Shown here: in pieces, positions 20,944 to 33,348 of the stretch
How the letters are laid out: the number at the start of each line of letters is the position of its first letter
How positions within the stretch are numbered: the stretch's first letter is position 1
Notes under the pieces: model-generated
Told to the model about the DNA's origin: nothing
Database searches by the model: none
The model's input: only the letters and a program-made list of their open reading frames with translations
DNA from: a virus
DNA: 33,398 bases
UHGV virus genome: UHGV-0115916
Direction: 5' to 3' (one strand)
Translations under genes and position numbers: made by a program

Positions 20944-21470
20944 TAACGCCCCCTATGAAATGTTGTAATAGATTTAATAGGGCTACCTGCGTTTAGTCCT
21001 TTCATATCTGAAATTAAATCGTTTGCCCTTTTAACATAGGTAGAACGTAGGCGTAGAAGTACTTCGCTTGATTCATAAGTTAGGGCTTTATTTTGTATTG
21101 ATTGACTTAGTACACCACCACCTTTAATACGGTCTAGTGTAATTTGGTCAATATCTTTTATGATCTGAATTAGATCATTATATTCTGAGGCTTTACTAGT
21201 TGGATCAGTTACTTCAAATTGTTGTACACCGTATGCTTTAGGACTATCAATAATTGCAGTCCAGATACCCACGCCCCACGTATTAGTATCAATATCAGGG
21301 AATGGGTAAACATAGGAAGTTTTAACACCGTTAGGATCTATCAAATCGATATTAGTTCCTTCTGGATAGTTGAAAGTAATTGTTTCACCTTTGATAATAT
21401 CGCCTTTTAAATCAACTTTGCGAACAATTGCCATTTGTTTTATTTCCTTATTTAAAGAATCCTCCACCAC
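20943..21470 (-). CDS. Hypothetical protein in the lambda gpW position (possible head-tail joining protein)
   Basis: 175-aa ORF between the large terminase and portal genes; no motif recognised. Confidence 0.4.
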   Translation of the reverse strand: MVEDSLNKEIKQMAIVRKVDLKGDIIKGETITFNYPEGTNIDLIDPNGVKTSYVYPFPDIDTNTWGVGIWTAIIDSPKAYGVQQFEVTDPTSKASEYNDLIQIIKDIDQITLDRIKGGGVLSQSIQNKALTYESSEVLLRLRSTYVKRANDLISDMKGLNAGSPIKSITTFHRGR

Positions 21471-23376
21471 GTCTAGACGGACGTACTACACGACCTGTTT
21501 TTACTGGTGCTGGTTCTTCTTTATTTACTTCTTTATTTAGTCCTTTCTCTTTTTGTTTGGCGTTGAATTCGCGTAGTTTGCGGAATGGCTGATTACCTAA
21601 TTTAGATAGATACCAGTGGAAACATATTAAAGCGTAGTTAAGACAATCAAGCGTTTCATTCCTTGCTGAACTAATTTTCTTAACCCATACCCACGCCCCA
21701 GCTTTAATAACTCTCTTCTCACTTGATACCTGAATAAAGTAATCATCTGGTACTGAATGGCTGAAGTGTATTTGTACTTCACTACTATTACCACTATCCG
21801 ATACTGCACGGTTTAATAGTTGTCTAATATTACTTTTCCCTAAGTTTACGTTTAGGTTTATTAGACTATGACCACCAGCCGTAGAGCCTTTAAAGAGTGG
21901 GTTAGTATTTGAAGTACCGCCCTTGATTGGTTTAAAGATTGTCGATGCACTACAATAGCGATATACCGTACTGGTTGCGTTACCGTTCGAACTATCTACA
22001 AAACCTGCAAGTACTTTAAGTGGTTTACCGGATACGGTTTTAAAGTTAGTTTGTGAAAATGCTGTTAGCTTATTCCATGCGGGAGCCTCTATTTTAGTAC
22101 AGTCAATGCTATGAATACTGCGATGATCGAGTACATAAAGATTCTTTTCACTTATTCCTAACGTTGTTACTTCAAGGCGGTCTAACTGTTGGTCTACACC
22201 TAGTACGATTCCTTGACAGTCATCCGGCACGGTATCTATATCTATTGAACTATCACGTAGGTTTTCAAGTAATACTAAATCATGATCGGTATTCTCTTTA
22301 TCAATATAAGGAAGTCCTAAGACGTTATTGTAGAATGAGGCTAGATCAAATGTATAATGTGCTTCGGCAAAATCCTGTACTATTGATTTGATCGAGTTAA
22401 TCGGGGAGTATAAACGGCTAATATGATACCCCATGATATCCGTTACTTCTGGTACTGTAGCTATCCATTCACCCTTACGTATCATTCTTACACGTTCGGC
22501 TTCTGTGATTACATTATTACACTTAGGACATTGTAGTTTTGCTGTCTCTGCATCTGGAATGCGACGACGACCACCATCAATAATTTTCCAGTCGAATTTA
22601 ACATTTTCAAATACTAATTCATGTGCATGATCACAATGTGGGCAAGGTACGTAGAACTTCTGTTTATTACTTTGCTCGTACTGCTGAGTGATTAAATCAT
22701 TCTCATCAAGTGGTGTAGAACAAACCATAATAAGAGGGTTGCTAAAAGCCTTTGTACGCTGTTCTGCTAGCTTTAGTGGGTTCCCTTCATCACCATCTGC
22801 ATCTACGTTAGATATTTCGTCAAGAAAGATACGGGGGGCTGTCAAGCCTCGCAAATTCGCACTACTACCCAATGTTAGGAAGTACGTAAAAGTACCGTCT
22901 AAGTTTTGTTGTGTCTTATCATTATTAGTATAGTTTTTATCATTCTTATTACTGACTAGATTTTTAAGTACTGCACATGCTTCGATTACTGATTGCCATT
23001 TACCAGTACGAAACTTACTAGTAGTGCTGGCTGTTGCACCTGCGAAAATTAGATTGCTTGGATCATTTGCGAGGAAGTAGTACATACTATTCTGTAAAAC
23101 TGTTGTTTTGAGAAGTTGTGCACTGCTCATCAAAACTATTTTTCTAATTCTTGGATTAGTAATGTCATTTATGGGCTTGTGCTGAAAGGAAAATAACTTT
23201 ACGCGTTGTCCTTGTAGTTCCCCATCCGGGAATACTAAATTATTCTCTACCCATTCCGCTGGTAGTTGTCGCTTCGGAGGTAGGATCGACTTCGCCGCCC
23301 TCGTTAGTACCTTCATCATCTTCTGGTAGTTGTTCATCCGTGTATGTTCCTTCATATTCATAGCTACCAATTTCAT
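21448..23376 (-). CDS. Terminase large subunit (lambda gpA-like)
   Basis: 642 aa; VPCPHCDHAHELVF ... CPKCNN zinc-ribbon-like segment and DCLNYALICFHWYLSKL parallel lambda gpA (VACPHCGEEQYLKF; EALDCFVYALAAL); true start probably an internal Met (about 23316-23361) because the track ORF overlaps the small subunit gene by 137 nt. Confidence 0.85.
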   Translation of the reverse strand: MKLVAMNMKEHTRMNNYQKMMKVLTRAAKSILPPKRQLPAEWVENNLVFPDGELQGQRVKLFSFQHKPINDITNPRIRKIVLMSSAQLLKTTVLQNSMYYFLANDPSNLIFAGATASTTSKFRTGKWQSVIEACAVLKNLVSNKNDKNYTNNDKTQQNLDGTFTYFLTLGSSANLRGLTAPRIFLDEISNVDADGDEGNPLKLAEQRTKAFSNPLIMVCSTPLDENDLITQQYEQSNKQKFYVPCPHCDHAHELVFENVKFDWKIIDGGRRRIPDAETAKLQCPKCNNVITEAERVRMIRKGEWIATVPEVTDIMGYHISRLYSPINSIKSIVQDFAEAHYTFDLASFYNNVLGLPYIDKENTDHDLVLLENLRDSSIDIDTVPDDCQGIVLGVDQQLDRLEVTTLGISEKNLYVLDHRSIHSIDCTKIEAPAWNKLTAFSQTNFKTVSGKPLKVLAGFVDSSNGNATSTVYRYCSASTIFKPIKGGTSNTNPLFKGSTAGGHSLINLNVNLGKSNIRQLLNRAVSDSGNSSEVQIHFSHSVPDDYFIQVSSEKRVIKAGAWVWVKKISSARNETLDCLNYALICFHWYLSKLGNQPFRKLREFNAKQKEKGLNKEVNKEEPAPVKTGRVVRPSRRGGGFFK

Positions 23377-23812
23377 TTAATTGATCATCTATTTTTTCCT
23401 GTAGTTTGATTTTTAATTCTAATGCGTCTGCTGATTCGAATAATTCAACATAACTTGACGCGGGAATACTTCTTAATACTTGGCGTAGTTGGTAGAAGTA
23501 TTGGGATAAAGTTTGCTGTACTACTGCTACTGGTATTAGCTCGCCGGATTGCTGACGTAATTCCATTTCTTTAATATCAGCTTCTGCTTCTAACTTACGT
23601 AGTGTTGCTTTTTGTATTTGGCCTTTTGTATCACCGCTTCTTAGTGGTTCGATTACGTTTGCAAGTAACCAATCGTCAACTAATTTCTTAGGCCAGGTGA
23701 TATCTAAACCTTTACCAGACCATATACGGCTAACAGTAGAATGCTCTACGCCGAAACGATCCGCGATTTCTTGCCACGTGTAGCGGGTTCCATCGTCTTT
23801 AATTTTTGCCAT
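23240..23812 (-). CDS. Terminase small subunit (Nu1-like, N-terminal HTH)
   Basis: Start reassigned to ATG 23812 (MAKIKDDG...) with AAGGA RBS; YTWQEIADRFGVEHSTVSRIWSGKG helix-turn-helix; acidic C-terminal tail; directly upstream of the large subunit. Confidence 0.75.
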   Translation of the reverse strand: MAKIKDDGTRYTWQEIADRFGVEHSTVSRIWSGKGLDITWPKKLVDDWLLANVIEPLRSGDTKGQIQKATLRKLEAEADIKEMELRQQSGELIPVAVVQQTLSQYFYQLRQVLRSIPASSYVELFESADALELKIKLQEKIDDQLNEIGSYEYEGTYTDEQLPEDDEGTNEGGEVDPTSEATTTSGMGRE

Positions 23813-23891
23813 TTTGTTTAGTCCTTGTTTAGTACAATAAACCTGTACTTTCCTTTTATTTCGTTTTGTTTGTTTTCGATTAGAAATCCCA

Positions 23892-23949
23892 CGAATTTTA
23901 AATACAATTCGCGGCGAAAACTCGATTTTTTTGTTCTCAATTAGAGAAC
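23892..23949. promoter_or_regulatory. Palindromic elements upstream of the terminase small subunit gene (candidate late operator / packaging-site region)
   Basis: CGAATT-N8-AATTCG (23892-23911) and perfect 17-bp palindrome GTTCTCAATTAGAGAAC (23933-23949) in the 229-bp intergenic region. Confidence 0.3.
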
Positions 23950-24041
23950 CTAAAGTTAAAACTTCACTCACGATTTTAATTTTTGATTTGTAATAATATT
24001 TATATTATCATTGTATTATAAAGTAACAACAAGGACATGTA

Positions 24042-24980
24042 ATGAAACACATAATCCAAACCAGAAGTGTTTTTAAGGATATCGAAGACTCTTTATTTAG
24101 TGAGTTGCATTCAGCTAAGACAAGTATCAAAATCTGTGTTGCATGGATAAACTTTGAGCTTTTTGAAAATATATTATTATCTAAGGCTAAAGAAGGTGTT
24201 GAAGTTGAGATATTAGTTAATAATGATTATATCAATACAAAATTTCTTGATAAAATATCTGATAATATAAAACCATTAATTAATCTAATTAAAAACCCTA
24301 TTAGTAACCACTTAATGCATCATAAATTTTGTATCATTGATGATGAAGTTTTGATTACTGGCAGTTATAATTGGTCAAAAAGAGCACCATATCATTATGA
24401 AAATATAATAATCATCCGTAATGATTTCAATCTAATAATGCAATTTAAACATGAGTTTGCAGATTTAAAATACATGGGTGCAATGCCAAGTACAGAATTT
24501 AATGCATTTAAAGTAACCAAAAATCTCAATAGATTTGTTGTTGGCACATATAGTTCATCTGTGGGGATATATGAAACCGTCACATTGCAGTTATGGGAAA
24601 TTGATATTAACAACTTAACTTTTGAACGACATGGCGAAATGGATATCCCTTTCTTCAATTATTTATTAGATATTAATACTGATGATCATTATCTTATTGA
24701 TGAAAAAGAAAGGTACATCGATCTATATGATCAAGAGCGTAGACAGATGGAGACTATCCAAAGTCATTTTAGAAGATTAAATTGTTCAATTCATGCTTAT
24801 GGAACAGCAATAATAGCGAACGAGAGCGAATACCTTGAAGGTTATGAAGAGCCTATTCGTGTAATTCACTTCAATTGGATAGATATGCGATTAAGCAAAG
24901 TATTACCCTCTTCTTTGCCCGCAACTATGGAACTTGAAGGATTATGGCACGAAATATATGCTCCAAATGGATATATTTAA
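24042..24980 (+). CDS. Phospholipase-D-family (single HKD motif) nuclease with uncharacterised C-terminal domain
   Basis: 312 aa; exact H-x-K-x4-D-x6-G-S-x-N motif at aa 93-110 (HHKFCIIDDEVLITGSYN); AAGGA RBS 6 nt before the ATG; AT-rich gene. Confidence 0.8.
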   Translation: MKHIIQTRSVFKDIEDSLFSELHSAKTSIKICVAWINFELFENILLSKAKEGVEVEILVNNDYINTKFLDKISDNIKPLINLIKNPISNHLMHHKFCIIDDEVLITGSYNWSKRAPYHYENIIIIRNDFNLIMQFKHEFADLKYMGAMPSTEFNAFKVTKNLNRFVVGTYSSSVGIYETVTLQLWEIDINNLTFERHGEMDIPFFNYLLDINTDDHYLIDEKERYIDLYDQERRQMETIQSHFRRLNCSIHAYGTAIIANESEYLEGYEEPIRVIHFNWIDMRLSKVLPSSLPATMELEGLWHEIYAPNGYI

Positions 24981-25012
24981 ATAATATTCTATAATTAATG
25001 AGGAACGGTATT

Positions 25013-25372
25013 ATGTCTAATTATCCTATACCACTTAGCCTTGAATTTAATAGTCAAGATACTGCTAATATCATTTGTAGTTATCTAGAAAAAAATCATC
25101 AAGATTCTATTTTAAAAACCATATTAAATATAGATTTGTCTTTTATTGATTATCGTGCACAATCTTCTAATTACTTTATAATTAATGACGTTGAATATAT
25201 TGGAGATAATAATTATATTTTATATTATAAAATAAACTACTACATTTATAATCTCTGTAAAGATATGGATATTGATGATGACTACGAGACTTCGATAAAT
25301 TTTACATTGAATAATGGATTTTTAGTATTTGATATAATTGATTGTGAAAGAAATATATCAGATGAAATATAG
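25013..25372 (+). CDS. Hypothetical acidic small protein, partner of the PLD-family nuclease
   Basis: 120 aa from ATG 25013 (GAGGA RBS 8 nt upstream; the track start 24998 lacks an RBS); Asp/Glu-rich (DMDIDDDYE, DIIDCERNISDEI); 32 nt downstream of the nuclease gene. Confidence 0.5.
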   Translation: MSNYPIPLSLEFNSQDTANIICSYLEKNHQDSILKTILNIDLSFIDYRAQSSNYFIINDVEYIGDNNYILYYKINYYIYNLCKDMDIDDDYETSINFTLNNGFLVFDIIDCERNISDEI

Positions 25373-25436
25373 CCATATTTAATTATCACTTAAGGATTTC
25401 AACATCAGGATTTAAATTTTAATTATATATAATAGT

Positions 25437-25468
25437 AAAAGCCTAATACTCATCAGTAATAGGCTTTT
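25437..25468. terminator. Bidirectional terminator hairpin between convergent accessory operons
   Basis: 9-bp stem AAAAGCCTA (25437-25445) / TAGGCTTTT (25460-25468) with a 14-nt loop; A/T-rich flanks. Confidence 0.5.
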
Positions 25469-25475
25469 ACCTAAA

Positions 25476-25895
25476 TTATAATTGATTCAATCGATAGATA
25501 TTAGATGTACTTGAGCCATCGCTATACACCTCTGATATAGTCAGTTTGTTTCCATCCACTTTGTATTTTACTACACTATCAGCCGGATCATTTCTCCAAC
25601 GACCTGAGCTATCTGGATTGTTTGATGCCCACATAACTTGATCATCAATCAGTTTGCACTTGATAGCCCATCTTGTGCTGTCATCTTTACGTATGTAATG
25701 GACATAGGCTACATCAGATTGAATCTTATCAAGCTTCATTATTTTATGATCTCGCCCAAACATAGATGCAGCCGCCGCTTTGCAGATCTGACCAACATTA
25801 GCTTCCGCTGCGTAGAGTGAAGAACTGAACAATAATGGCACAATCACTAATAACTTTATCATCGCATATCGTCTCGTAGTAAAAATTAATTTCAC
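25476..25895 (-). CDS. Exported (signal-peptide) protein of unknown function
   Basis: 139 aa; GTG start at 25895 with AAGGA RBS; N-terminus MKLIFTTRRYAMIKLLVIVPLLFSSSLYA-AEA is a classical signal peptide; 1-nt gap to the upstream HNH gene. Confidence 0.6.
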   Translation of the reverse strand: MKLIFTTRRYAMIKLLVIVPLLFSSSLYAAEANVGQICKAAAASMFGRDHKIMKLDKIQSDVAYVHYIRKDDSTRWAIKCKLIDDQVMWASNNPDSSGRWRNDPADSVVKYKVDGNKLTISEVYSDGSSTSNIYRLNQL

Positions 25896-25896
25896 C

Positions 25897-26622
25897 TTAT
25901 TTCCTTAATAACTTTTTTAATTCCTCAACTGTCTTCATTTCTTTTCCAATATGAATCATTGCATGACAGTTTGCACATAAAGGTATAAGATCTTCAATTG
26001 GGTCAATCTTATAGCGTTTACCAATAGTATGTAGTGGCACTATATGATGAACATGAATATAATTTTTTCCGTGACTTCCATACACTTCTTCAAAATTAAA
26101 ACCACAGACACCACAACTCAAACCATGTTTATCGATACATTCTTTTCTAGCCTTTGGATCTCTCTCATAGTACGTAGCAATCCTTTGATGCTTTTCACCT
26201 TCATAGTATTCACTTTCTATTTCAGGTGTGAATGAATAGTAATCTTCATCGGTGGCATACCAATCTCCATCTTTTTTAGTAAGATATTTTCGTACTATTT
26301 TCTTTTCAAAATGTTTAATCCTAGCAGCACCATTTTCAGTTGTTTTCTCATGCCTAGTCTGGCTAAAGGTGAAAAGACTATACCCTTCATGTAAAATTTT
26401 ATCTATGTGTTCGATAGATTGTGTATAACCATTTTTTTTGTGTCCATTTACATTTTCACGCCAACTGCTAGCCAAGATTAAAACTTTCTTACCATCATCT
26501 GATCTAAGATCTTCCCAAGCTCCAAAAATTATTTTTTTGTTGATCTCATCAATAAATGACCAACTCCAGTTATCATTTTTACATGTAGCACCCAAAGAAC
26601 GCATGAACTCTGTTCGGGACAT
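25897..26622 (-). CDS. HNH nuclease (restriction / McrA-like) with N-terminal domain of unknown function
   Basis: 241 aa; C-terminal HNH motif CGVCGFNFEEVYGSHGKNYIHVHHIVPLHTIG ... LIPLCANCHAMIH; AAGGA RBS; N-terminal ~150 aa Trp-rich domain not identified. Confidence 0.75.
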   Translation of the reverse strand: MSRTEFMRSLGATCKNDNWSWSFIDEINKKIIFGAWEDLRSDDGKKVLILASSWRENVNGHKKNGYTQSIEHIDKILHEGYSLFTFSQTRHEKTTENGAARIKHFEKKIVRKYLTKKDGDWYATDEDYYSFTPEIESEYYEGEKHQRIATYYERDPKARKECIDKHGLSCGVCGFNFEEVYGSHGKNYIHVHHIVPLHTIGKRYKIDPIEDLIPLCANCHAMIHIGKEMKTVEELKKLLRK

Positions 26623-26659
26623 TTTTCATCCTTAAAATATGTGACCTACATCACATGAA

Positions 26660-26742
26660 ACTATCGACTGTAGGAGGTTTCTATCCTTCGTAAAGCTAAC
26701 AAACCTACCCAAAGTAGATAGAAACCTCCTACAATCGATAGT
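26660..26742. repeat. 26-bp near-perfect inverted repeat between divergent operons (candidate operator or RNA structure)
   Basis: Left arm ACTATCGACTGTAGGAGGTTTCTATC (26660-26685), right arm GATAGAAACCTCCTACAATCGATAGT (26717-26742); 25 of 26 positions complementary; 31-bp spacer. Confidence 0.7.
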
Positions 26743-26802
26743 GTATGTGTGTTCCTTTTGATGGTAAAGTATTAATATAGTGTTACCTAGACTGGGTGTA
26801 CA

Positions 26803-26825: not shown

Positions 26826-27536
26826 ATGCTTAATCTCACTAAATGTAATTTACTTTTGATCGGCACTGTAATAACTCTATTACTGATAGCTATTCTTGTA
26901 GGTATAAAAATACTATTCTCCGATTCTAATCCAGATCTAGGCAGCTTAGCAGATTGGATCAGTTCTGTATCCGCAATAGGGACTCTTGGTGTTGCCTGGT
27001 TAGCTTATAGTAAAGCTGATGACTACATTGACAAAAAAGCTTCGGAAAGAGGAATTGATATCCTTGTCAATATGGTAACTGAATCATTCGTTGCTTATTT
27101 CAACTCACTAAATGAAACTAATTTCCATGCTTCAAAACTTGAAAATAAAATGATATTGATTGGCTTGGTTGATGAAAAAGTAGATTGCAATATTGAACTA
27201 CAATCATTAAGAGAAAAAATCATAACTCTCTTCGAAAATAGTCATCAAATAGACAAAGATTTTATAAAAATGAAAATAATGAAAATATCAAAACCCAGTG
27301 ATATTTTCTACGATCCAGTAACTAGCGATGATACATTGCAAGCGTTAAAATTAGCATTTCATAAACTGAACACTGAAATTTGTGAGAATGAAAATCAATA
27401 CAACATTAATAATGATTTACTTAGCGAAAATATCAACTTTATTAAAAACACTACCGAAAAGTTAGCCCATGATATTCGCAAACAGTTCTTTACCTCGCCG
27501 AATACTTATAAAGATTATTTTGGAAATCTGTCTTAA
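26826..27536 (+). CDS. Signal-anchored membrane protein (paralogue of the 1056..1796 product)
   Basis: 236 aa; N-terminal helix LLLIGTVITLLLIAILVGIKILF, DLGSLADWISS motif, second hydrophobic stretch, then a ~170-aa soluble domain. Confidence 0.6.
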   Translation: MLNLTKCNLLLIGTVITLLLIAILVGIKILFSDSNPDLGSLADWISSVSAIGTLGVAWLAYSKADDYIDKKASERGIDILVNMVTESFVAYFNSLNETNFHASKLENKMILIGLVDEKVDCNIELQSLREKIITLFENSHQIDKDFIKMKIMKISKPSDIFYDPVTSDDTLQALKLAFHKLNTEICENENQYNINNDLLSENINFIKNTTEKLAHDIRKQFFTSPNTYKDYFGNLS

Positions 27537-27581
27537 ATTATACGCTATCAAATATTCCATCAACATAAACAAGGAAAGTAG

Positions 27582-28280
27582 ATGACTACTCTCACTAGAA
27601 CTTATAATTTACCAAATGAGCTAGTTGAACATTTTTCAAATAACATTGTCTATTTCGAAAAACTTTTGTCTAAGGATTTTTCTGACTTAAATGTTAATGT
27701 AGCACCAGAAGACATTAAGAAAATAGAAAAATCTTTCGAAGTATCACATAGAATACGTGATTTCGAAATCAATCTGTATTGGCAAAGACTGAACTTCCTT
27801 TGGGCCATTACAGCATTGCTATTTGCTGGATGGGGAACATTGATCTTTAAAATCATCGAATTCAATGGAGGGGAAGCACCTTATATTATATTTGCCGCCT
27901 TATCATTTCTCTCACTTATAGGTGGGATTGTAACTATATTCACAAGCTTTATCATTGAGGCAGGTAAGCATTGGCAAAAGGTTTGGGAGTTTCATGTTCA
28001 CGCTCTTGAACCTTTTGTATCAGGTCATTTATATGCAATTCAGTTTTCTTATAAAAATAAAAAAAAGGCATCTATAAGTAGAAGCGTAGAAACTTTCAAT
28101 TATGCTTTGCTGTTTCTTTGGGCATGTTCAGCAGTATTCGCCGCAATCATCCCTTCACAAATAGGGAACGGTCTTGCAGGCATTATCCAATTAGTTATTT
28201 CTCTTCTTATAGTTGGTGCTTTTGTTTATATACGCAACTCTGTTACTAAAAAGGAGTCTATTAAAATTCAGCTTGATTAA
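27582..28280 (+). CDS. Integral membrane protein with about four predicted helices
   Basis: 232 aa; ~70-aa soluble N-terminus, then hydrophobic segments (LNFLWAITALLFAGWGTLIF; YIIFAALSFLSLIGGIVTIFTSFII; ALLFLWACSAVFAAIIP; LAGIIQLVISLLIVGAFVYI); AAGGAAAG RBS; 45 nt downstream of the 26826..27536 gene. Confidence 0.6.
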   Translation: MTTLTRTYNLPNELVEHFSNNIVYFEKLLSKDFSDLNVNVAPEDIKKIEKSFEVSHRIRDFEINLYWQRLNFLWAITALLFAGWGTLIFKIIEFNGGEAPYIIFAALSFLSLIGGIVTIFTSFIIEAGKHWQKVWEFHVHALEPFVSGHLYAIQFSYKNKKKASISRSVETFNYALLFLWACSAVFAAIIPSQIGNGLAGIIQLVISLLIVGAFVYIRNSVTKKESIKIQLD

Positions 28281-29986: not shown

Positions 29987-30472
29987 TTAGTTGTCTTTTG
30001 CAACCTTTGTATATGTCTGTCTATGTGTACTTCTATTGTACTTTTCATTCATGAATAGCGTGATATTGATACATGACATTCCACCAGTGTATAACGCCTT
30101 TACTTCATCTTTTTGTACTGGTGTTAGACGTGGTTCATTTTGTTTCTTACGTACTGCCTTACATGAATTTTCACTATATGTAATCCACTGCAAATTAGAA
30201 ATATTGTTGTCTCGTTTATCACTATTGATATTATCTACAACTAATCTTTTATTTGTTTGGGGTTTACTTAGAAATGTTTCTGCTACGAGTCTGTGTGTCT
30301 CTATCGGATATGATTTAGATTTCCCATCCTCATAAACAGTTAAAGTAACTTTATAGTACCCATTACTTTTACTATAACTCTGTGTTAGATAATTACCCGT
30401 TTTAGTATTGCGTACTTCTCCGTTACTACTTACTTCATAATTTACATATTGTGTTTGTTTCCATAATGTCAT
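29987..30472 (-). CDS. HNH homing endonuclease-like protein (NUMOD4 + HNH_3-type)
   Basis: 161 aa; YEVSSNGEVRN...NGYY.V.L...GKSKSY.IHRLVAETFL (NUMOD4-like) followed by VVDNINSDKRDNNISNLQWITYSEN (HNH_3-like). Confidence 0.75.
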   Translation of the reverse strand: MTLWKQTQYVNYEVSSNGEVRNTKTGNYLTQSYSKSNGYYKVTLTVYEDGKSKSYPIETHRLVAETFLSKPQTNKRLVVDNINSDKRDNNISNLQWITYSENSCKAVRKKQNEPRLTPVQKDEVKALYTGGMSCINITLFMNEKYNRSTHRQTYTKVAKDN

Positions 30473-31449: not shown

Positions 31450-33348
31450 CTAGATCTGGTCTATCCGATAACGCTCTATGAACTCTTTACGTGTTAAACC
31501 AGTCGATTCTAATGCAGTGGCTATATCCTTTGGAACTCGACCATTCAAGGCAATACTATATGTATTGCCTTCATACACAATGTCTACTCGATCATACTTT
31601 CCGGTATTAGGCCAGAATGAAGCCCCACTTATTTCACTATAACCAACCACTTCTAACATCTCATTAGCAGTATTGAACAGATCTAAATAACTTTGTTCAA
31701 TTTTATCAAGTTGTTCCACTGCTTTATTAAATAATGGCAGATTGCTAGTGGTAAGAAATCCTTCATCTCTGATACTTACATTATCAACAGAAGAAAATTC
31801 AACTTTAAACGCCCAATGTGGTTTTCTATCAGTTCCACCAAAAACTAACCATTCATCTTTAAAATGATACTTTATTTTTATCGTTATACACCCATCAGTT
31901 TTATCAACTATAACACTTTCAATAATAGAACTAATTACTTTCCTTATTTTATTTCTATCCGTATCCTGCATATTTGTAAAAACCGCCCACTGAATAAGAA
32001 TCATAAATTCATTTATATCGACTTCTAGAGATCCTTTACCTTTCAGTGAATATAAGCGTTCTTTTAACTTATCAACTTCCAGAACAGTCTTTTTACGTTC
32101 CATATCAAACGCATTTAGTTGAACTGCTAACGCACTAACATTAGGAGCAATTGCTATTGCTTGAGCCATGTTTGTTATGCGAGATTCCAGATCAGTTATC
32201 AACGTTTCTTTTCTACTGAGGTCTTCTTCTATCACAGTTGTGTCAATACCATCTTTTAGTCTCTTATTCATGTAACCGATCAGTAGTGAAATGATCGTAC
32301 AGTGTTCAACTAATTGTGCTGATATAGACCAGCCAGAACAGTTTTTTTGTAAGTGAACCCCATTAGTACAAATATAGCGAGCACTGCCATGATTCATGAA
32401 AGAATGCATAGTTCCTCCACACTTGCTACACCGTAACACCTGCAACCCTGATAACAATTTAATTTCTTCTACTTTGTCTTTCTTAGCCTTGAAGTTGTTT
32501 TGCTGCTTACGTTCAGCCAAGGTTAAATACTCTGCTTCATCTTTGCATAACCATGGATAGTAGTTATCAAGTTTGTAAGTAGCACCACCAGCATTGATAG
32601 TCCTTTCACCAATCAACGCCCGATTATCACGCATCTTTTTCAATACCTGATAATCCCATTCTTTACCCTTTAAACCATTAGGATATTTTTTATCGAGATG
32701 ACGCTTTACTGTATAGATGCCATTCCCATCTAAAAACATGTCTATAGCTTCGCGAGCGATACTCCAGTAAACGGGATGTTCTTTTACTGCTTCATATTGC
32801 GAACCTGAATCATCTATCCAAAATGGATGGCGACCAACTGACTTAATGTTTACTGGCAACCCTGCTTTATGACGTTCGACCAAGGCAACAACATTGCCTA
32901 TGGTCCTGTTAGATTTCGTTTCTGATTCTTCATTGCCACGGATAAACATCAGAATAGAAATCATCAGATCAGTAGGGTTTTGTCTGATGGATTCTCTGTT
33001 ATAGACCTTCCGATCCATTCCTGTGACAATCGTTAGCCCTAAACCAATCAATTCAAGGAATAAACGAAGTGCTTCATCCACCTGATCGCGTGATAGTCGG
33101 TCGAGGTTTTCACAGTAAAGCCAAGAGTCAGACGGTATAGCATTATTTTTTACGGCGTCTATGAAGTCACCCAACTTACCCGCCCTATTTTTTCCCCTGT
33201 AAGCACTCGTGCCAGGTTCCAAAATTTCAACCATTTCAAGCCCCGCTTCTTCAGCATAGGCTTTCGCTGCCGCTACCTGCCTGTTCTTGGTTGTTCCTTT
33301 TTCTTGGCGATCACTTGACCACCTGATATAGCTATAAAGTTGCGGCAT
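31450..33348 (-). CDS. Large serine recombinase (phage integrase)
   Basis: 632 aa; N-terminal resolvase-type catalytic domain (YIRWSSDRQ with the serine nucleophile; ...RLSRD...), recombinase domain, Cys-rich zinc-ribbon segment (CSKCGG...C...C) and long C-terminal coiled-coil-like region. Confidence 0.85.
   Translation of the reverse strand: MPQLYSYIRWSSDRQEKGTTKNRQVAAAKAYAEEAGLEMVEILEPGTSAYRGKNRAGKLGDFIDAVKNNAIPSDSWLYCENLDRLSRDQVDEALRLFLELIGLGLTIVTGMDRKVYNRESIRQNPTDLMISILMFIRGNEESETKSNRTIGNVVALVERHKAGLPVNIKSVGRHPFWIDDSGSQYEAVKEHPVYWSIAREAIDMFLDGNGIYTVKRHLDKKYPNGLKGKEWDYQVLKKMRDNRALIGERTINAGGATYKLDNYYPWLCKDEAEYLTLAERKQQNNFKAKKDKVEEIKLLSGLQVLRCSKCGGTMHSFMNHGSARYICTNGVHLQKNCSGWSISAQLVEHCTIISLLIGYMNKRLKDGIDTTVIEEDLSRKETLITDLESRITNMAQAIAIAPNVSALAVQLNAFDMERKKTVLEVDKLKERLYSLKGKGSLEVDINEFMILIQWAVFTNMQDTDRNKIRKVISSIIESVIVDKTDGCITIKIKYHFKDEWLVFGGTDRKPHWAFKVEFSSVDNVSIRDEGFLTTSNLPLFNKAVEQLDKIEQSYLDLFNTANEMLEVVGYSEISGASFWPNTGKYDRVDIVYEGNTYSIALNGRVPKDIATALESTGLTRKEFIERYRIDQI

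Follow-up and report, generated by a model that had tools for sequence, protein, structure and literature searches.

A prophage-borne HNH nuclease with a widespread, modular N-terminal domain is a probable Type IV-like enzyme

The virus genome UHGV-0115916 (33,398 nucleotides; "the window" hereafter means this whole stretch) is that of a tailed prophage with a low guanine-cytosine (GC) content of about 30–40%. On its minus strand it carries a gene for a 241-residue nuclease, directly followed by a gene for a small exported protein. We consider it rather likely that the 241-residue protein serves in defence as a restriction-type nuclease that stands alone and travels as prophage cargo, with its HNH domain licensed by an N-terminal domain reading foreign, likely modified DNA in the Type IV mode. 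Judged from sequence comparisons, the nuclease is a probable Type IV-like enzyme, and its sensor-domain family appears uncharacterised, widespread and modular. Both genes are adjoining minus-strand open reading frames, lying exactly where a first-pass annotation of the sequence had placed them (25897–26622 and 25476–25895). The nuclease gene is divided as follows.

25897–26622, minus strand: two-domain nuclease gene, an open reading frame for 241 residues with an ATG start (N-terminal domain, linker and HNH domain); its stop codon is at 25897–25899.
26239–26622, minus strand: N-terminal Trp-rich domain, residues 1–128, a putative sensor of DNA or of modified bases.
26173–26238, minus strand: interdomain linker, residues 129–150, predicted to be disordered (predicted local distance difference test, pLDDT, below 50 at residues 132–150) and variable in length and sequence in the alignment.
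25900–26172, minus strand: McrA-type HNH domain (beta-beta-alpha-Me, Cys4 zinc), residues 151–241.

The C-terminal domain had been read as an HNH nuclease in the first-pass annotation, and this holds. The Pfam HNH family (PF01844) matches residues 170–224 with an expectation value (E) of 3.6e-8 and 33.9 bits, for a cut-off of 21.4. In an alignment of 73 homologues, the residues C170-x2-C173, H192-H193, C216-x2-C219, N218 and H220 are invariant; with both CxxC pairs, the HH dyad, N218 and H220 conserved throughout, the active site looks intact. The assignment to the McrA type is equally borne out: the best sequence match in the PDB is the HNH domain of EcoKMcrA (6ghc, residues 193–276, aligned to residues 146–234 of the query, E 4e-8), hhalign joins the nuclease to EcoKMcrA with a probability of 97.7% over residues 139–230, and the PADLOC profile mREase_IV matches it at E 1.6e-9. 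An AlphaFold2 model of the 241-residue protein is confident, with a mean pLDDT of 82, and shows two domains separated by a disordered linker at residues 132–150.

The N-terminal domain, of about 128 residues, is rich in conserved aromatics, including W19, W21, W36, W54 and W121. Its family signature reads GATCxNWxWSWSF...IIFGAWD...LILSxxW...QSxEHI...EGYxLxTF...AKIxxF...WYA. In the AlphaFold2 model it is built of seven strands and one long helix. Neither the window protein nor 73 members of its family find a match for this domain in Pfam, NCBIfam, PHROGs or PADLOC.

What the domain may do is best approached through the company it keeps. Relatives sharing only the linker and the HNH domain (residues 113–241, 45–59% identity) carry, as recognisable N-terminal domains, EVE in 3 of 29 cases and DUF3427 in 3 of 29. 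These two are the readers of characterised modification-dependent enzymes: VcaM4I and TspA15I for EVE, SauUSI, YenY4I and McaZI for DUF3427 (PMC6765204, PMC7897488). Conversely, a phmmer search with the N-terminal domain alone against 1.84 billion representatives returned matches in 240 clusters of many lengths, 131 of them at E <= 1e-10. Pfam annotation of the 35 longest clusters found HNH in 20, NOV_C/DUF3883 in five, EVE in four, and DUF3427, MUG113 and VWA in one each. The resulting layouts are varied: the domain precedes NOV_C/DUF3883, either directly or with DUF3427 in between, stands between EVE and HNH, precedes MUG113, or follows VWA. NOV_C/DUF3883 is the PD-(D/E)XK domain of YenY4I and McaZI (PMC6765204), and MUG113 is GIY-YIG-like.

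The domain is thus exchanged among HNH, NOV_C/DUF3883 and MUG113 nucleases and also occurs with EVE and DUF3427, as modular sensors of Type IV enzymes do. Its exchange among three nuclease folds and its tandem occurrence with established base readers are what a Type IV sensor of a DNA feature would be expected to show. Two independent lines, the readers found in the HNH-only relatives and the shuffling of the domain itself, therefore support a sensor role, as far as domain architecture can indicate it.

The family is large and dispersed. We found 285 full-length homologues of about 245 residues, with identities from 99% down to about 43%, and more than 575 matches to the nuclease in contigs sampled at one genome per species. 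Full-length members occur in Gamma-, Beta-, Alpha- and Deltaproteobacteria, Chlorobiota, Verrucomicrobiota, Planctomycetota, Bacteroidota, Ignavibacteria, Gemmatimonadota, Acidobacteriota and Chloroflexota. The family is also present in about 35 prophage contigs of IMG/VR, and a tblastn search of the GenBank cultured-phage collection gave matches to the HNH domain only and no full-length relative.

Around the nuclease, no partner gene recurs among the immediate neighbours at 64 non-redundant loci, and the top 25 Pfam families contain no methyltransferase family with two or more occurrences. As for Type IV enzymes, the nuclease stands alone among its nearest neighbours at these loci, with no cognate methyltransferase. 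The defence and mobile-element genes found nearby comprise OLD/AAA_15 ATPases, EcoRII, SMODS (the CBASS cyclase), the YoeB toxin and integrases; individual members sit in an integrative conjugative element in Yersinia and in a recombinase-flanked islet in E. coli.

We now propose how the protein could work. The aromatic-rich beta domain at the N-terminus would recognise foreign DNA by some feature, a modified base being the likeliest, and this recognition would license cleavage by the linker-tethered, McrA-type HNH cutter at the C-terminus, in the modification-dependent Type IV mode. We infer each of the steps upstream of cleavage: DNA binding by the N-terminal domain, its reading of a modification, and the identity of that modification. 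More tentatively, at somewhat less than even confidence, the domain could represent an undescribed and widespread class of DNA-modification readers, at most a very distant relative of SRA/PUA-like or NEco-like domains (NEco being the N-terminal, 5mC-binding domain of EcoKMcrA), recruited by at least three nuclease folds, with members restricting marks other than those of Dam and Dcm (hydroxymethylated, glycosylated or hypermodified bases).

Several observations weigh against this proposal. The hosts of the family are Dam+, and E. coli is also Dcm+, so the Dam and Dcm marks are excluded as targets. We found no biochemical data on any member of the family. Single methyltransferase neighbours are possible outside the top 25 Pfam families, and an N6_N4 methyltransferase does lie two genes away from the nuclease in one E. 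coli locus (L088). The nuclease and the exported-protein gene occur close by in three or four arrangements, more than chance adjacency would give. No profile-level link of the N-terminal domain to SRA, EVE, DUF3427 or NEco was found: the Pfam families SAD_SRA, EVE, YTH and ASCH do not match any of 73 members even at E 1, a profile of the domain against PDB sequences returns noise only (ribosomal protein S6, E about 1), and hhalign against a small EVE alignment gives no signal. Foldseek with the whole model against the PDB yields no significant match, with AbaSI ranking first, and the fold similarity of the domain is weak and comes from a single model.

The first-pass annotation had suggested that the N-terminal part could be a modified-base-reading or other sensor domain, to be compared with known reader folds. 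It is indeed a separate domain that behaves like a sensor module, but it could not be linked to SRA, EVE or NEco by sequence or by profile, and its modification dependence is inferred. Likewise, profiles of SRA, EVE and YTH do not match, but the model of the domain does find structures, weakly, among SRA-like and EVE-containing folds. Going by this model, an SRA/PUA-like assignment is plausible, not established.

The domain might instead respond to a cue that is no base modification, for instance structured or damaged DNA, a protein of the phage or a nucleotide signal, with the HNH domain acting as an abortive-infection or other non-modification-dependent defence nuclease. We regard this as unlikely. 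The N-terminal domain occupies the EVE/PUA site of known enzymes, including a YenY4I-like layout, and stands in tandem with EVE and with DUF3427; its structure matches, such as they are, lie with DNA base readers and not with ligand sensors, and no signalling partner genes recur nearby in the 64 loci.

Another interpretation concerns the gene that follows the nuclease, which had been annotated as encoding a protein with a classical signal peptide. Three features define it and its relation to the nuclease gene.

25476–25895, minus strand: small exported-protein gene, an open reading frame for 139 residues from a GTG at 25895; the likelier start is the ATG at 25862 (128 residues).
25809–25862, minus strand: signal peptide, M12–A29 (MIKLLVIVPLLFSSSLYA), with probable cleavage before A30, as read from the alignment of 37 homologues.
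25435–25470, between convergent genes: hairpin with a 16-bp stem (inverted repeat I2, 94% complementary, 4-nucleotide loop), a probable bidirectional terminator closing the two-gene unit.

The signal peptide withstands comparison. A hydrophobic N-terminal leader is kept across the 37 homologues and ends in ...LYA|AEA or ...VQA|SEV with no lipobox Cys; by inspection of the alignment, it has the n-h-c layout, the A-x-A-type site and the lack of a lipobox that characterise Sec export. The mature protein, of about 100 residues, is highly conserved and has two invariant Cys. In its structure model, residues 1–30 are of low confidence and the mature domain of high confidence. The 82 homologues, mostly of 128–129 residues, all come from Enterobacterales. 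On sequence grounds the product is a small protein of the periplasm, exported by means of a Sec signal peptide, probably disulfide-bonded and unrelated to the nuclease.

The translation start is a different matter. In the window, the GTG that adjoins the nuclease stop codon, described earlier as a start 1 nucleotide past the stop with a strong ribosome-binding site, does have a good Shine-Dalgarno sequence (AAGGA, 6-nucleotide spacer). The codon itself is not conserved: close relatives have GTG, ATG or GTT at its position, of which GTT is no start, and the following 33 nucleotides diverge faster than the rest. The ATG 33 nucleotides downstream (M12, MIKLLVIV...) is kept in all relatives and fits both the 128–129-residue length and the NCBI annotations. 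Translational coupling at the GTG is doubtful.

Co-transcription, by comparison, is likely in the lineage of the window, because the two genes are 1–34 nucleotides apart on the same strand with no hairpin between them and the 16-bp hairpin just after the second; this part of the first-pass annotation stands, as a reading of the sequence. The 25435–25470 hairpin was not called by our terminator scan, which demands a T-run.

It had further been proposed that a cytoplasmic nuclease and an exported protein make up a functional two-gene, two-compartment exclusion module. Their adjacency on one strand of the window, bracketed by a single promoter-like region upstream and a single terminator-like hairpin, speaks for it, as does the fact that the families are neighbours in reversed order in a chromosomal setting (L094, L114, L141) and lie 2.3 kb apart in the E. 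coli prophage L246. To follow the pairing, we gathered 82 loci in which the exported protein has a homologue and 101 in which the N-terminal domain occurs, and looked for the partner within 4–5 kb. The exported gene is missing from 87 of the 101 N-domain loci, and the nuclease from 68 of the 82 exported-gene loci; the exported gene is in none of about 48 species-level genome loci.

Both genes are present in 14 loci, which collapse to three arrangements. In the lineage of the window (nuclease at least 92% identical), the nuclease comes first and the exported gene second. At a chromosomal site beside GNAT and MFS genes, the exported gene is followed, after an 80-nucleotide gap, by a 62%-identical nuclease. 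At a similar chromosomal site, the exported gene again comes first, with a gap of 430 nucleotides. Prophage L246 provides a fourth arrangement, with four genes between the two. The order is thus reversed in two of four arrangements, which also vary in spacing and in the genes between the two. Among prophages that share the hotspot, some have the nuclease alone (L169, L170, L171 and L200, at 60–72% identity) and one the exported gene alone (L100), and Morganella prophages place the exported gene after a tail fibre gene. Finally, the nuclease family spans about ten phyla, against Enterobacterales only for the exported family.

A lack of co-occurrence in other genomes had been named beforehand as something that would speak against the module, and it is largely what we observe, with pairing limited to the lineage of the window and a few other arrangements. 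We therefore regard the module as very improbable, since it is not conserved in partner, order or spacing. From the sequence record, the two families have a habitat in common, and at times a transcript, without forming an obligate module, and the exported protein appears to be an independent moron that finds itself in one transcription unit with the nuclease in this phage lineage. It resembles phage morons such as lambda bor and the exclusion lipoproteins of the cor/llp type in being a small envelope-targeted protein in variable prophage cargo sites, here upstream of the terminase genes in the window and downstream of the tail fibre gene in the Morganella prophages. A role in the periplasm, in exclusion or in host fitness, would be a guess from these cargo positions.

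The defence-nuclease reading places the gene among prophage cargo, and its genomic setting bears this out. The surrounding features are listed below.

21448–23376, minus strand: large terminase of lambda GpA type, with its own nuclease domain.
23240–23971, minus strand: Nu1-like small terminase.
24042–25372, plus strand: cassette of a 312-residue PLD-family nuclease and a 124-residue protein (phrog_13663).
26826–28280, plus strand, divergent from the nuclease gene: cassette of a 236-residue membrane protein without family and a 232-residue membrane protein of the 8xMP family (PF24838, E 1.3e-16).
29987–30472, minus strand: second, small HNH endonuclease of 161 residues (phrog_59, E 2e-26; phrog_959, E 3e-22).
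31450–33348, minus strand: large serine recombinase of 632 residues (phrog_95 integrase, E 1.6e-45).

Read leftwards along the minus strand, the order is serine recombinase, small HNH, a few small genes, small terminase, large terminase, portal, and the head and tail genes. In a 4.3-kb stretch that separates the small late genes from the terminase genes, the GC content drops to 29–35%; the stretch contains three two-gene cassettes in alternating orientation (plus, minus, plus). The identities of terminase and nuclease are uncoupled in this setting: in L001, the nuclease is 92% identical and the terminase 43.5%. As the nuclease does not follow the terminase, the cassette moves horizontally. On comparative evidence, the nuclease gene and the exported gene are accordingly separate items of cargo, both placed in a variable hotspot that lies upstream of the terminase genes.

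A role of the nuclease as a packaging accessory that aids the terminase in cos cleavage, like HK97 gp74, would agree with nine related prophage loci in which a family member precedes the small terminase gene by 1.2–2.3 kb on the same strand, but is highly improbable given the uncoupled identities, a GpA-type large terminase that brings its own nuclease domain, a separate small HNH (phrog_59/959) in the window, a family found mostly in non-phage contexts of many phyla and at full length in no cultured phage of the GenBank collection, and a two-domain build whose N-terminal half is common to non-HNH nucleases.

Other elements of the region deserve mention in their own right. A 29.7-kb contig, IMGVR_UViG_2770939623_000002, encodes both studied proteins identically and neighbour proteins that are 97–100% identical, and by this measure is probably the same element as the window; near-identical DNA was not found in the GenBank phage collection. 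One end of the prophage is probably marked by the serine recombinase, which sits close to the right end of the window. The 161-residue HNH lies upstream of the hotspot and could be of homing or packaging type. As listed, the two terminase open reading frames overlap by 137 nucleotides (23240–23376), and the GTG start of the small terminase is probably too far upstream, because its PHROG terminase match begins only at residue 58.

In the PLD cassette, the 312-residue protein has an N-terminal PLD-family domain (PLDc_2, E 5e-20, with weak matches to NucT, DpdK, DrmC and MkoC) and some 170 C-terminal residues without family, a layout resembling that of defence enzymes combining a PLD nuclease with a sensor. 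The cassette recurs in L112 at 96% identity and is absent from L001, L099 and L113. In L001 and L200 the same position is taken by genes of the 8xMP type that are only 28–33% identical, and the membrane-protein cassette may therefore be a steadier feature of the hotspot than the nuclease.

The region upstream of the nuclease gene contains a structured leader, which we describe together with its putative control elements and its counterparts in other loci.

26660–26742, minus strand: leader hairpin (inverted repeat I1) with 26-nucleotide arms and the apical loop motif UUGGGUAGGUUUGUU (26697–26712).
26740–26768, minus strand: promoter-like boxes TTTACC (26763–26768) and TACACT (26740–26745) with a 17-nucleotide spacer, from the alignment of instances and by consensus resemblance only.
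26640–26655: perfect TGTGA-N6-TCACA palindrome, 17 nucleotides upstream of the nuclease ATG.
L001:564–659, L001:1711–1811, L007:7477–7572, L169:2866–2966, L171:3894–3994: further loop hairpins.
L172:7330–7425, L175:5550–5645, L191:6000–6095: further loop hairpins.

The leader hairpin is conserved in relatives with compensatory, covarying changes. Its loop motif is found in at least nine other loci, on stems that are entirely different yet self-complementary; without exception the hairpin lies on the strand that carries the nuclease and terminase genes, though not in every case before a nuclease gene. Such a fixed loop on variable stems argues for a functional element. We folded the hairpins sequence by sequence, their stems being unalignable in a MAFFT alignment (RNAalifold). 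A search of Rfam gave no family at the gathering score, and an exact 14-mer scan of IMG/VR with the loop motif yielded about 8 genuine hairpins out of 120 hits, the others being mostly due to chance. The TTTACC-17/18-TACACT boxes precede the hairpin in several loci; a generic promoter scan chose another site (26802–26774). The palindrome, retained as GTGA-N6-TCACA in L001, L099 and L169, has the core of the CRP-type consensus and is a candidate CRP site.

In L246:1003–2523, and also in L175 and L181, a gene for a 263-residue DUF6998 protein starts 1 nucleotide past the nuclease stop codon and is followed by a copy of the loop-motif hairpin. The nuclease has in this gene another downstream partner than the exported gene of the window.

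As a whole, the locus provides an example of a cargo hotspot that GpA-terminase prophages of Enterobacterales carry ahead of their terminase genes, and in which nucleases, membrane proteins and exported proteins assort independently and a structured, conserved leader element is also present. Modification-dependent nucleases are a major layer of phage defence and serve as reagents for epigenomic mapping, and every reader domain added to them has come with a specificity of its own. If the N-terminal domain does form a new reader class, it would add a specificity class to Type IV restriction and tools for mapping modified bases. Since the family is large, absent from curated domain libraries and shuffled in the manner of a sensor, it lends itself, as a well-defined candidate, to being expressed and tested.

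Among known systems, packaging nucleases of the HK97 gp74 type differ from the window protein: they are small, HNH-only and both work and co-evolve with an HK97-type terminase, whereas the window protein has 241 residues, two domains, a large terminase of GpA type beside it and an identity uncoupled from that of the terminase. Two further candidates were set aside as its match, ScoA3V (PMC6765204), by description only, as its relatives are confined to Actinomycetales, and the END nucleases (PMC12191111), which combine PLD with an inactive EndoIII and are unrelated.

In build, the window protein is close to EcoKMcrA, the Type IV enzyme of the E. coli e14 prophage (6ghc). Both are prophage-borne, stand-alone, two-domain proteins of about 240–280 residues with the same HNH subtype, and in both an N-terminal specificity domain is joined to the HNH domain by a linker. 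The N-terminal domain of the window protein is however not demonstrably NEco. The idea came from a resemblance in LILxSW...Y..EHI, seen as DDGKKVLILASSW...NGYTQSIEHI in the window and EDGVYGLILESWG...KDYNIALDYI in NEco. With the domain profile set against EcoKMcrA and its few homologues, hhalign returns the same alignment, which places S53-W54 of the window protein on S30-W31 of NEco (28–40 columns, P 0.016, probability 2–3%); W54 is invariant in the family, and W31 forms, together with S30, a methyl-binding pocket in NEco (PMC7145662). NEco has only a tiny family, with 8 matches, all close relatives and, where annotated, all enterobacterial, too few and too similar for a better profile; that of the window domain, in contrast, is large and spread over many phyla.

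The SRA-HNH enzymes TagI and ScoA3IV and the EVE-HNH enzymes VcaM4I and TspA15I share with the window protein an N-terminal beta-rich reader (a putative one in the window protein), a C-terminal HNH and the lack of a cognate methyltransferase, and EVE-HNH and DUF3427-HNH proteins are its nearest HNH-only relatives. It differs from these PUA-superfamily enzymes in that its N-terminal domain would be, at best, a separate and undescribed clade, with the 73 members free of SAD_SRA, EVE, YTH or ASCH matches.

A third relation is to YenY4I and McaZI, which consist of a PUA-like domain, DUF3427 and the DUF3883 PD-(D/E)XK domain (PMC6765204). YenY4I itself, a PD-(D/E)XK enzyme of 595–601 residues (PMC6765204), was rejected as a match for the window protein, which has an HNH domain and lacks DUF3427, and the two are related by domain shuffling, not by orthology. 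The link is made by protein P0292, in which our N-terminal domain is followed by DUF3427 and NOV_C/DUF3883: it has the layout of YenY4I, with the N-terminal domain taking the place of the PUA-like domain.
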